Sequence record: MW748999.1
DNA: 64,000 nucleotides
Strand: one strand, 5' to 3'
From: Escherichia phage vB_EcoM_Skers
The notes beneath the pieces are model-generated. The model did not search any database. It saw only the letters and a program-made list of their open reading frames with translations, and had not been told where the DNA came from. Below are positions 59,237-61,329 of the stretch, piece after piece. The position numbers and the translations under genes were made by a program. The stretch's first letter is position 1. Each line of letters opens with the position of its first letter.

Positions 59237-59458
59237 TTATAGTTGATCAGCGATGTAAGCGTGACAAGCGCGGAGTTTCATTAATGCACTACCTTTCACT
59301 TCGCCTACGATGTTCATAACTTCTAAGCGGTCGGATGGATTCATCTTAGAGCACCAGATCTGGTTAGCCAATTCCAGTTTACTCATATTTGGTTCCATCT
59401 CAAACAGTTCACGCTCAAAGTCGATAATTTCTTTTGCTGCGTCTTTAAAGTTAATCAT
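59237..59458 (-). CDS. hypothetical small protein
   Basis: 73-aa ORF with GGAGAATCAAA SD. Confidence 0.4.
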   Translation of the reverse strand: MINFKDAAKEIIDFERELFEMEPNMSKLELANQIWCSKMNPSDRLEVMNIVGEVKGSALMKLRACHAYIADQL

Positions 59459-59524: not shown

Positions 59525-59710
59525 TCAGAAATATGCAATATAGTTTGCCAGTCCTACAGAGTCATCATTCGGCATTGCTTTTACTGCCAGTTCAAACCCT
59601 GCTTCAACTTTCTGTTTAGCGGATTCTTCGTTATAACCCCAGATTACCAGAATAGCTACTACGTTTTCTTTGCTTACTGCTTTCAGTGCTTTAGTGATGC
59701 GACGTGCCAT
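59525..59710 (-). CDS. hypothetical small protein
   Basis: 61-aa ORF with SD. Confidence 0.4.
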   Translation of the reverse strand: MARRITKALKAVSKENVVAILVIWGYNEESAKQKVEAGFELAVKAMPNDDSVGLANYIAYF

Positions 59711-59756
59711 AATTTGATTCTCCGTTTAAGAAAGTGTGTTTCGTTTCGATAGGTGT

Positions 59757-59785
59757 ATTATGCTATAGGAGTGATCTGGTGTCAA
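59757..59785 (-). promoter_or_regulatory. promoter cassette (TTGACA-17-CATAAT)
   Basis: Minus-strand motifs upstream of ORF starting at 59710. Confidence 0.4.
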
Positions 59786-59810
59786 CAACTTTTTTAAAAA
59801 AATTTTAGGC

Positions 59811-59838
59811 AATAAAAAAGCCACTCCGAAGAGTGGCT
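59811..59838 (-). terminator. rho-independent terminator
   Basis: Hairpin AGCCACTCttcgGAGTGGCT followed by U-tract on the minus strand. Confidence 0.55.
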
Positions 59839-59983
59839 TATAGGGAAGGTAGCGAATCTTCCTTGTCTCCAACCTGCTAGCGGCCTAGCAAGTGAATGCT
59901 TTAGCGTACCGGATCGCCCACATACGCTGTAATAAATGCGGCTAGGTGACGTCCAAATCATTCTAACCGCGCTGTCTTTAGTT
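59839..59983 (-). ncRNA. candidate small non-coding RNA (~145-170 nt) between a late-promoter core and a terminator
   Basis: No convincing ORF or SD; several internal inverted repeats (CCTAGC/GCTAGG, GGAAG/CTTCC, TGCTAG/CTAGCA); bounded by TATAAATA and an intrinsic terminator. Confidence 0.25.
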
Positions 59984-59988
59984 CACTA

Positions 59989-60207
59989 TTATTTATATCG
60001 CTTTCTCTCGCGACGTTTTTGATCTTCTTCCTTGATAGAGTTAAATGCATCAAAAAGACACATGACACTAATAATAAACATAACCGTATTTTCTACGATA
60101 TCCCACGGCTTCGCATCAGTACAGATCCCCCAAACGGTAAGAAATGCAAATAGTGCAGAAGAGATCACAAGCATGATACTTGCTAAGATATAAAAAGTCA
60201 TTTTCAT
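59989..60207 (-). CDS. small hydrophobic membrane protein
   Basis: 72-aa ORF. Confidence 0.3.
   Translation of the reverse strand: MKMTFYILASIMLVISSALFAFLTVWGICTDAKPWDIVENTVMFIISVMCLFDAFNSIKEEDQKRRERKRYK
59990..59997 (-). promoter_or_regulatory. T4-type late promoter core (TATAAATA)
   Basis: Exact TATAAATA on the minus strand overlapping the stop of ORF 59989-60207. Confidence 0.35.
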
Positions 60208-60398
60208 GGTTTTACCTCAATTCTTCGATATTCATCACACATCCACGCAGTAAGCAAGAATCCCAACACATAAGCAACAAAATACGTTAATGCTTCTTCT
60301 GGTTCGGTGCTATGCGCCATCATCAGACCAGCGAGAAAGGTCTTAACAATCACATTTAAAATAATTAGCCACGCAAATAATTTCATCGTTTGCCCCAT
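60204..60398 (-). CDS. small hydrophobic membrane protein
   Basis: 64-aa ORF. Confidence 0.3.
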   Translation of the reverse strand: MGQTMKLFAWLIILNVIVKTFLAGLMMAHSTEPEEALTYFVAYVLGFLLTAWMCDEYRRIEVKP

Positions 60399-60622
60399 TT
60401 CGGTCGAGTCTTTTCAAACTTATACATTCCGTAACAATCTCGAATCATCCACGTAACAAGAGCACCAGTCAACACAGACAATACACAGAAGAAGTAAAAC
60501 GGTCCGGTTGCATTATCAACATGAGCAAGCCAGGTAAAGAAAACACATGCTAAGAATGTAAAGAACATCATAAAGCACAAGAAAGCGAAATATTTTATAC
60601 TACTCATAGCGCCACCATACAA
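60383..60622 (-). CDS. small hydrophobic membrane protein
   Basis: 79-aa ORF. Confidence 0.3.
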   Translation of the reverse strand: MYGGAMSSIKYFAFLCFMMFFTFLACVFFTWLAHVDNATGPFYFFCVLSVLTGALVTWMIRDCYGMYKFEKTRPKWGKR

Positions 60623-60710
60623 AAGATCATAAGAAAACCCAACGCAATAAGAATTGCATCAAATTTAGTGAACTCAGGTCCACCTATCAACATCATTCGT
60701 TCTATTTCGT

Positions 60711-60953
60711 TCATAGCGTACAAAGCCATTTAAAAGCACCACATAAAGCGAGCAGAATACTAGGTATAAACGAGATCAAAACAAGTTGGCAAAAATCATC
60801 TAAGGTAACACCGGAATAGCTACCTACTGTAACAACACCGATCATCAGACACAGAAAGAAAACAAATGCAATCATAAACAAAGTATTGCTAAACAGTTTA
60901 GTGATCATTAGACACCCCACGACAATCAATTTCAAAAACTTTTTTATCATCAA
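60711..60953 (-). CDS. small hydrophobic membrane protein
   Basis: 80-aa ORF. Confidence 0.3.
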   Translation of the reverse strand: MMIKKFLKLIVVGCLMITKLFSNTLFMIAFVFFLCLMIGVVTVGSYSGVTLDDFCQLVLISFIPSILLALCGAFKWLCTL

Positions 60954-61101
60954 CGAAGCATGTCACAACTGCCTCGTTGACTTCCGCAAATTGTTGTGTT
61001 ACCCACTTAAGGTCAGAGCGAAACAATGTTCTATTAATAACAAATGTTTTACCGCTCTTATCCTTACCCATAAATTTTGCTTTAACCATATCCAATTCCA
61101 T
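60898..61101 (-). CDS. hypothetical small protein
   Basis: 67-aa ORF. Confidence 0.3.
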   Translation of the reverse strand: MELDMVKAKFMGKDKSGKTFVINRTLFRSDLKWVTQQFAEVNEAVVTCFVDDKKVFEIDCRGVSNDH

Positions 61102-61110
61102 ATTATCACC

Positions 61111-61269
61111 TTATTTGCTAATCGCTAAACCCAATCCGAAGAGAGCACCCGATGCTACAGTATACCCGAAAGTTTCAAAGGCAGTAAAGATATCTAAGCC
61201 ACCAGCTAACAGAGTTGCAGTAAACAGAGTACCAGCTACGAACATAAAAGTTTTACCGATAAATTTCAT
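61111..61269 (-). CDS. small hydrophobic membrane protein (52 aa)
   Basis: ORF MKFIGKTFMFVAGTLFTATLLAGG... with GGAGAATCAAA SD; not in track. Confidence 0.3.
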   Translation of the reverse strand: MKFIGKTFMFVAGTLFTATLLAGGLDIFTAFETFGYTVASGALFGLGLAISK

Positions 61270-61299
61270 TTTGATTCTCCTTTCGTTTGTTTGTGGGGG

Positions 61300-61329
61300 T
61301 ATCTTACTACCCCCGTTTCATGTTGTCAA
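61300..61329 (-). promoter_or_regulatory. promoter-hairpin cassette (TTGACA-18-TAAGAT inside GGGGGTA/TACCCCC palindrome)
   Basis: Minus-strand motifs. Confidence 0.4.

Follow-up and report, generated by a model that had tools for sequence, protein, structure and literature searches.

A candidate structured non-coding RNA element at the end of the dmd operon in Krischvirus phages

Known small RNAs and the Krischvirus element

Phage T4 encodes two small non-coding RNAs with no assigned function, rnaC (species 1) and rnaD (species 2), which are cut from a tRNA precursor and are not bounded by a promoter and terminator of their own. Bacterial small RNAs such as CpxQ and SroC derive from 3' untranslated regions (3' UTRs) or share the terminator of upstream genes. 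The element described here, about 170 bases located between two small genes of Escherichia phage vB_EcoM_Skers, can be compared with both; it lies in a stretch of 64,000 nucleotides from record MW748999.1, hereafter called the window, and is a new candidate phage-encoded small non-coding RNA with good comparative support. T4-type phages rank with the best-studied viruses. As a candidate the element is concrete and easy to test, and no sequenced member of its genus, from which phages have been used in therapy work (Phi1, GEC-3S, ECD7), lacks it. According to a 2010 review, T4 had no trans-acting regulatory RNA or riboswitch with a characterised function, and T4 and T4-like phages go unmentioned in a 2025 review of small RNAs from phages (PMC12197685).

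The window belongs to an RB49-like Krischvirus (T4-related Straboviridae) and is 98-99% identical to RB49, Phi1 and ELT4; the minus strand carries all genes around the element and all window features described below. Judged from sequence comparison, the chances are about even that this Krischvirus-specific stretch is a functional non-coding RNA element, which would be made as minus-strand RNA, early in infection as the 3' end of the dmd operon transcript and late as a separate RNA of ~172 nt.

With rnaC and rnaD the element has in common that it would be a small non-coding RNA without an assigned function, encoded on the same strand in the region transcribed after genes 1, 57A and 57B. The T4 RNAs, however, come last in a cluster of tRNA genes, and rnaC possesses a tRNA-like T-arm; the element has neither. 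ARAGORN detects no tRNA or tmRNA gene in the 64-kb window, RB49 is devoid of tRNA genes, and neither ARAGORN nor a permissive Rfam scan (to E<=10) reveals a tRNA-like domain, in agreement with the missing tRNA cloverleaf reported in the preliminary description of this DNA. The best local alignments to rnaC and rnaD score 16 each, shuffled sequences giving a mean of 15 and maxima of 22-25. The analogy with the small stable RNAs of T4, drawn in the same description, holds for the position and fails for sequence similarity and for the tRNA cluster.

Bacterial small RNAs derived from 3' UTRs, including CisR of prtV, resemble the element in sharing the terminator of the upstream operon and in a possible origin by read-through, to which a possible internal promoter is added here. 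They differ in being of bacterial or temperate-phage origin, usually Hfq-dependent and equipped with a defined seed, whereas the internal promoter of the element would be of the phage gp55 late type and no target complementarity was found in the window or the RB49 genome. The characterised phage small RNAs, such as a lambda RNA acting on host replication (bioRxiv 10.1101/2024.10.31.621285) and prophage RNAs (PMC12197685), are likewise small, phage-encoded and terminator-ended, with candidate action in the lytic cycle; the known ones, however, come from temperate phages or prophages and have no sequence or Rfam relationship to the element. The Rfam/Infernal scan suggested in the preliminary description returned no family at gathering score in the whole window, and a permissive scan of 59600-60200 gave only sub-threshold, terminator-driven matches (EF3314_EF3315, RNAI, STnc100) of at most 24 bits, compared with cut-offs of 41-100. 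No Rfam family, annotation (in ~60 GenBank records) or paper describing the element was found.

Distribution, constraint and folding

The body of the element, ~150 nt upstream of an intrinsic terminator, is present at no less than 96% identity in 58 of 58 Krischvirus records, defined as those with core genes 57A and 57B at >=95%, and in no other phage record; as the 58 body-bearing records are matched by exactly 58 records with 57A and 57B, every sequenced Krischvirus has the element. Twelve further contigs from metagenomes, IMG/VR and Logan also carry the body (L023, L037, L038, L039 and L045-L052). Genomes of E. coli match the terminator alone (26 nt), plasmids gave no match, and two 20-21-mer scans of GTDB genomes gave no match and one match, respectively. 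The latter, in an Acidobacteriaceae metagenome-assembled genome, was rejected, having no flanking similarity, with about one such match expected by chance. In contig L038 (positions 1-60) the sequence diverges fully after GGAAGA, 46 nt before the contig end, with loss of hairpin 4 and the terminator; no match was found for the 46-nt replacement, which may be an insertion or an assembly artefact.

Variation within the element is concentrated in a single hairpin. In a comparison of 20 sequences, the adjacent gene for a hydrophobic protein of 72 aa (59989-60207; RB49p118 homologue), which is the last gene of the dmd operon and ends in CGA TAT AAA TAA, is variable at 64 of 216 sites (nucleotide diversity, pi, 0.059), and the distribution of these sites over the codon positions, 16/7/41, is a coding pattern, with 41 of 72 third positions affected. 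The 5' part of the element has 2 variable sites in 57 (pi 0.004), the 3' part 3 in 63 (pi 0.006) and the terminator none in 29 (pi 0), whereas hairpin 2 has 11 in 28 (pi 0.10). Outside hairpin 2 the element is thus variable at 5 of 120 sites and ~10 times less diverse than the adjacent gene.

The same picture emerges from the most divergent lineage, contig L023, in which differences were counted against the window: 45 of 216 positions differ in the 72-aa gene, 1 of 60 from its stop codon to the end of hairpin 1, 9 of 29 in hairpin 2 and 0 of 63 in hairpins 3-4, and the terminator has one indel in 29 nt, leaving a single substitution in the 152 nt of the element outside hairpin 2. Eight more divergent contigs, found via divergent homologues of the 72-aa protein, differ at 21-38 of 216 positions in the gene, at 3-9 of 29 in hairpin 2 and at 0-2 in each of the other segments. 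A divergent island of 29 nt inside invariant flanks is not the product of a single recombination boundary. These counts fit purifying selection that acts on the sequence itself in the terminator, the linkers and hairpins 1, 3 and 4, but only on pairing in hairpin 2.

That the stretch is merely a decayed gene remnant or spacer, which appears conserved through the close kinship of the sampled phages, is unlikely, and the least probable of the readings weighed here. All copies do come from one genus, with core genes 96-99% identical, and among cultured isolates alone the element is 96-100% identical, much like its flanks; yet its diversity falls well below that of the adjacent gene in the very same genomes, where the neighbouring gene differs by 10-21% only 0-2 changes are seen outside hairpin 2, its translation has no homologue elsewhere, and no loss has occurred in 58 genomes despite the known gene turnover of the region.

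The element is non-coding. The preliminary description had seen ~150 nt without a credible open reading frame (ORF) or Shine-Dalgarno sequence (SD), and this proved correct: the only ORFs in the stretch, one of 55 aa (59961-59794) and one of 48 aa with a TTG start (59872-59726), lack an SD and cross the terminator, and one of them also crosses the promoter beyond it. A conserved ORF in relatives had been named beforehand as an observation that would speak against an RNA; instead, the 55-aa frame is broken in relatives by indels of 1-2 nt in the hairpin 2 loop, and the 48-aa frame by indels in T/A runs and in the promoter. A tblastn search with the 55-aa ORF found it in Krischvirus only, often split by frameshifts, with E ~1 for matches elsewhere, six-frame translation shows stops in the other frames, and GenBank annotators have called differing and mutually incompatible ORFs in the stretch, or none.

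The predicted fold comprises four hairpins and the terminator hairpin. Hairpin 1 (59938-59970) has stems of 8 and 4 bp, separated by an internal loop and capped by a UUGGAC loop, and is invariant save for one C-to-U change in the latter. Hairpin 2 (59903-59928), the sole fast-evolving segment, has a 7-bp stem and a hypervariable apical part, all stem changes keeping the pairing. Hairpin 3 (59871-59893) has an invariant 9-bp stem and a GCCG loop with one change, and contains two of the three CTAG sites of the body. It is followed by a single-stranded GGAG/AAGGAAG linker (59863-59870) and, immediately after, by hairpin 4 (59844-59862), in which GGAAG and CUUCC enclose a 9-nt loop and one A-U to G-U change is compatible with pairing. 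Hairpins 1-3 and the terminator are found both by RNAalifold and in the single-sequence fold; for 59862-59844 the alternatives are hairpin 4 or, in the minimum-energy fold, a long-range helix that involves the 5' end of the element. The loop of hairpin 2 holds a GATC (Dam) site in the window and many relatives, lost in several lineages (AATC, GACC); RB49 encodes its own dam gene.

Across 19 distinct sequences, 798 of 798 cells are paired in the five-hairpin model, which was derived from the same sequences used to score it; 10 of 500 column shuffles score as well. The search for compensatory base changes in relatives, proposed in the preliminary description, yielded one complete path, at pair 60-83 of hairpin 2 (GC in 16 sequences, GU in 1, AU in 2), while four further stem changes are compatible with wobble pairing; three other pairs change to G-U only, including AU to GU at 59-84 and GC to GU at 62-81. 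Variable columns are rarer among paired positions (5/84) than among unpaired ones (19/91; Fisher p=0.004), also when hairpin 2 is left out (1/70 vs 12/75; p=0.002). Six invariant G-U pairs and all one-sided changes fit an RNA of the minus strand only.

Late promoter motif and proposed routes of transcription

The preliminary description placed an exact T4 late promoter core at 59990-59997, and TATAAATA does stand there without mismatch, overlapping the TAT AAA and the first base of the TAA stop codon of the 72-aa gene. The motif is not enriched as such, with 2 sites in the window where 5.5 are expected and 14 exact sites in the whole RB49 genome where ~14.6 are expected at random. Twelve of these 14 are found 25-45 nt ahead of an SD, start codon and ORF, a placement shared by only 9% of random positions, and the genes behind them are mostly T4 late genes (53, 9, 18, 22, 23, 24, 34, rI, 31), plus uvsW and 51. 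Since 12 of 14 sites are properly placed while the total is only about that expected by chance, stray TATAAATA sites look purged from RB49. The site of the element is one of the two orphans among the 14, lacking the late-gene spacing and having no SD, start codon or ORF within 70 nt downstream; it is nonetheless present in 27 of 28 related sequences, even in lineages with a changed preceding codon.

The core of a late promoter occupies -13 to -6 relative to the late start (PMC1524935), which would place the transcription start at a G at 59984. Most likely, then, the gp55-type late promoter TATAAATA starts a separate transcript near 59984, giving a predicted discrete RNA of ~172 nt (59813-59984, from the putative start to the end of the terminator U-tract), the sequence of which would equally form the 3' UTR of early transcripts. 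The nearest early promoter upstream of the element, TTGACA-17-TAAGAT (61301-61329), heads the dmd operon, ~1.5 kb with a 52-aa ORF, dmd and five small membrane-protein ORFs. No terminator is predicted between 61329-61301 and 59839, so the element would also serve as the 3' UTR of this early operon, and the late promoter would therefore not be the sole route of its transcription.

In the proposed course of events, early transcription would proceed from the promoter near 61329 through the dmd operon and stop at the terminator hairpin (59839-59818). After the beginning of replication, the late promoter TATAAATA would start a transcript at ~59984 ending at the same terminator as a discrete ~172-nt RNA. 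The RNA would fold into five hairpins, hairpins 1-4 and that of the terminator, with hairpins 1, 3 and 4 and the linkers constrained in sequence and hairpin 2 in its pairing only. As loops and linkers are fixed as well as stems, recognition by specific protein or RNA partners is suggested, and the most likely role of the RNA would be that of a trans-acting riboregulator or a protein-binding decoy late in infection rather than of a passive stabiliser. We infer transcription itself, both routes of synthesis, the exact 5' end and the action in trans from the sequence. The structured small RNA of the preliminary description stands as far as a non-coding structured RNA is concerned (genus-wide presence, purifying selection, pairing kept, ORFs frameshifted), with the discrete transcript and the use of the promoter as predictions. 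Its late-promoter drive stands as regards the motif, but not as the only route, given that the early dmd operon would also have the stretch as its 3' UTR and that one metagenome variant, contig L037, has no TATAAATA.

It is tempting, though doubtful, to hypothesize that virulent T4-type phages have here their first example of a regulatory or decoy RNA acting in trans: a ~172-nt RNA made from a gp55 late promoter, the sequence of which would be conserved because it binds a specific host or phage factor, and which would through this factor reshape late RNA metabolism. Candidate partners would be components of RNA degradation or RNA chaperones such as RNase LS/RnlA, RegB with ribosomal protein S1, Hfq or ProQ, and the fast-evolving hairpin 2 would be either a structural spacer or a surface under host-driven diversification. 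If expressed and functional, the element would offer an entry to RNA-based regulation or counter-defence in virulent myoviruses, and it would follow that exact TATAAATA can mark non-coding late transcripts, RB49 having a second orphan after gene 23. A type I toxin-antitoxin-style antisense role was considered and rejected, there being no complementary run of at least 11 nt to the upstream operon (59989-61329).

Several results weigh against a functional RNA synthesised in these two ways. The internal inverted repeats of the preliminary description are present, though thermodynamics alone is weak: the folding z-score is -3.5 with the terminator and -1.7 without it, the latter not significantly better than shuffled sequences. 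True covariation is found at a single base pair in one hairpin, and all sequences come from one tight genus, the alignment being 97% identical. Exact and G-U-tolerant searches of the window and the RB49 genome for complementarity to RB49 transcripts found none beyond chance, with a longest Watson-Crick run of 12-13 nt as compared to 12-14 nt in shuffled controls; conserved unpaired segments do exist, and it was phage transcripts that were scanned. There is no Rfam match, and nothing points to a specific partner or mechanism. The site is not among the 17 RB49 late promoters listed by Nolan et al. with a hidden Markov model, and no transcriptome study of an RB49-like phage was found in the literature. 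Finally, in L037 a 14-nt deletion takes out TATAAATA and the element is retained, so the late promoter would be dispensable for the upkeep of the sequence, unless the contig is defective. A 2-nt insertion in the same contig (variant at L037 3330-3400) gives the 72-aa protein a recoded C-terminus.

The main rival explanation, possible but well short of probable, is that the stretch acts purely in cis as the 3' UTR of the dmd operon. The hairpins and terminator would then set the stability, processing or 3'-end formation of the early polycistronic mRNA, no independent RNA would be functional, and TATAAATA would be an accident of the Tyr-Lys-stop sequence. Nothing but the element separates the last gene of the operon from its terminator, with none other predicted upstream, and its retention in L037 without the late promoter is what this explanation would lead one to expect. 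The element could, for example, hinder exonucleases attacking from the 3' end or present cleavage sites for RegB or RNase E, such as the unpaired GGAG at ~59870; RegB cuts GGAG when GGA is unpaired, and RB49 encodes RegB. A stabiliser, on the other hand, needs structure and not sequence, yet loops and linkers are near-invariant, with 12 of 75 unpaired positions variable outside hairpin 2 as opposed to 41 of 72 third codon positions in the neighbouring gene, and this TATAAATA is kept in nearly all relatives where stray copies look purged. Even if the element is only a 3' UTR stabiliser, it would still explain a conserved unannotated gap in ~60 GenBank genomes with spurious ORF calls.

A second long ORF-poor 3' stretch in the window also speaks for the cis-acting explanation, as long 3' UTRs may recur there. 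It spans ~230 nt (48599-48371) after an rI.-1 homologue, has only ORFs of 51 and 30 aa, and ends in a strong terminator (48370-48345, 11-bp stem) followed by an early promoter (48331-48303) of the PeSL type described below; the RB49 counterpart is 328 nt (47675-48002) and unannotated. Paralogy of the element to 48371-48599 was rejected: the two are not homologous, their terminators alone being alike.

The second orphan TATAAATA of RB49 stands just past the gene 23 terminator, outside the window (L042 44950-45370; RB49 94950-95370), with ~360 nt free of annotated ORFs between it and ORF162. This region could encode another late non-coding transcript, or else a long leader. It is not a recognisable paralog of the element, the best local alignment being equalled by 60 of 300 shuffles. 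The other TATAAATA of the window (49315-49308) sits ahead of the rI homologue, where an inverted repeat, CCCCAGAT...ATCTGGGG (49270-49330), spans the rI promoter and SD. This resembles the arrangement of T4 genes e, soc and 49, in which early read-through transcripts sequester the SD and late ones do not.

The terminator, the PeSL cassette and neighbouring genes

The strong intrinsic terminator with which the preliminary description closed the stretch is borne out. It occupies 59811-59839, with a 9-bp stem, a UUCG loop and a U6 tract followed by AUU, the hairpin being AAGCCACUC-UUCG-GAGUGGCUU at 59839-59818; in RB49 it has a TransTerm confidence of 100, and ARNold predictions of it appear in two GenBank records. 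With its U6 tail it has the form expected of Hfq-dependent small RNAs, namely an intrinsic terminator with a long 3' U-tail.

The layout of a promoter, a structured leader of ~150 nt, a terminator and a gene is the classic one of an attenuator, in which transcripts begun at the late promoter would carry a leader, and the 61-aa gene and those after it would be controlled through regulated read-through of the terminator. This reading is very improbable. No antiterminator pairing was found in the element; forcing the 3' arm of the terminator open makes the best fold 12.9 kcal/mol worse, and the best competitor overlaps hairpin 3 and forms no dedicated antiterminator helix, so that a riboswitch or attenuator is unlikely. 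Moreover, the downstream gene has its own strong early promoter past the terminator, and no riboswitch or leader family matches.

The terminator forms part of a PeSL (promoter-early stem-loop), a repeated type of regulatory module through which modules are shuffled in RB49 and Phi1, where the region is hyperplastic (Arbiol et al. 2010, PMC2839356). Positions 59839-59711 contain, in order, the terminator hairpin, an AT-rich tract, a sigma-70-type early promoter and an SD, with a 61-aa ORFan beginning at 59710; the AT-rich spacer and promoter cover 59757-59810, the promoter itself (TTGACA-17-CATAAT, 59785-59757) being near-consensus at 11 of 12 positions. Matching cassette features are annotated in the GEC-3S record. 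The locus differs from the PeSLs of PMC2839356 in that its stem is not of the polyG/polyC type described there as frequent, and in that the body is not part of the ~100-bp repeat: each genome has the promoter and 5' UTR part of the cassette at 8-10 places, the window containing 8 copies of the -35 motif, whereas the 150-nt body is single-copy, at one place per genome in all 58 records. The equivalent RB49 gap, between RB49p118 and RB49p117, is also longer than other PeSL gaps, reaching 278 nt because the 150-nt body is present, compared with 66-113 nt for its neighbours.

Given this setting, the stretch might be a DNA-level element, i.e., an extended PeSL recombination linker or a binding site, origin or another site recognised as double-stranded DNA, conserved through homologous exchange. 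The region is hyperplastic and mosaic, with PeSLs mediating module shuffling (PMC2839356), flanking genes occur in divergent alleles (77% vs 100% identity for a 73-aa gene), many metagenome contigs break just past the element, and CTAG is enriched in the body, with 3 sites in 150 nt where 0.27 are expected. We nevertheless consider this improbable: the body is single-copy and outside the PeSL repeat, the promoter part that is repeated is far more variable (14 of 53 sites), the one-sided A-U to G-U and G-C to G-U changes keep pairing in minus-strand RNA and worsen a DNA palindrome, and the 29-nt hairpin 2 island in invariant flanks would need two extra crossovers. The GC content of the body is 48.7%, compared with 40.2% for the window (98th percentile). 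A CsrA-type enrichment of GGA was dropped, 4 GGA in 180 nt being near chance level.

Assemblies probably break at the repeated PeSL sequence, as the metagenome and Logan contigs L046-L049 and L051 stop 170-310 nt past the 72-aa gene, inside the terminator/PeSL region or shortly after it. The 61-aa gene that follows the PeSL (59525-59710) belongs to Pfam DUF7421, and homologues at 75-80% identity occur in IMG/VR viral genomes of ~50 kb (loci L007-L022), unlike T4-like phages in size; the RNA element is absent beside these homologues. This distribution suggests that the cassette gene has been exchanged between phage groups. Two cassettes downstream, the 73-aa gene (59237-59458) occurs in two allele classes, with ~77-80% vs 92-100% DNA identity, in otherwise near-identical Krischvirus genomes, a clear case of PeSL-bounded allele replacement.

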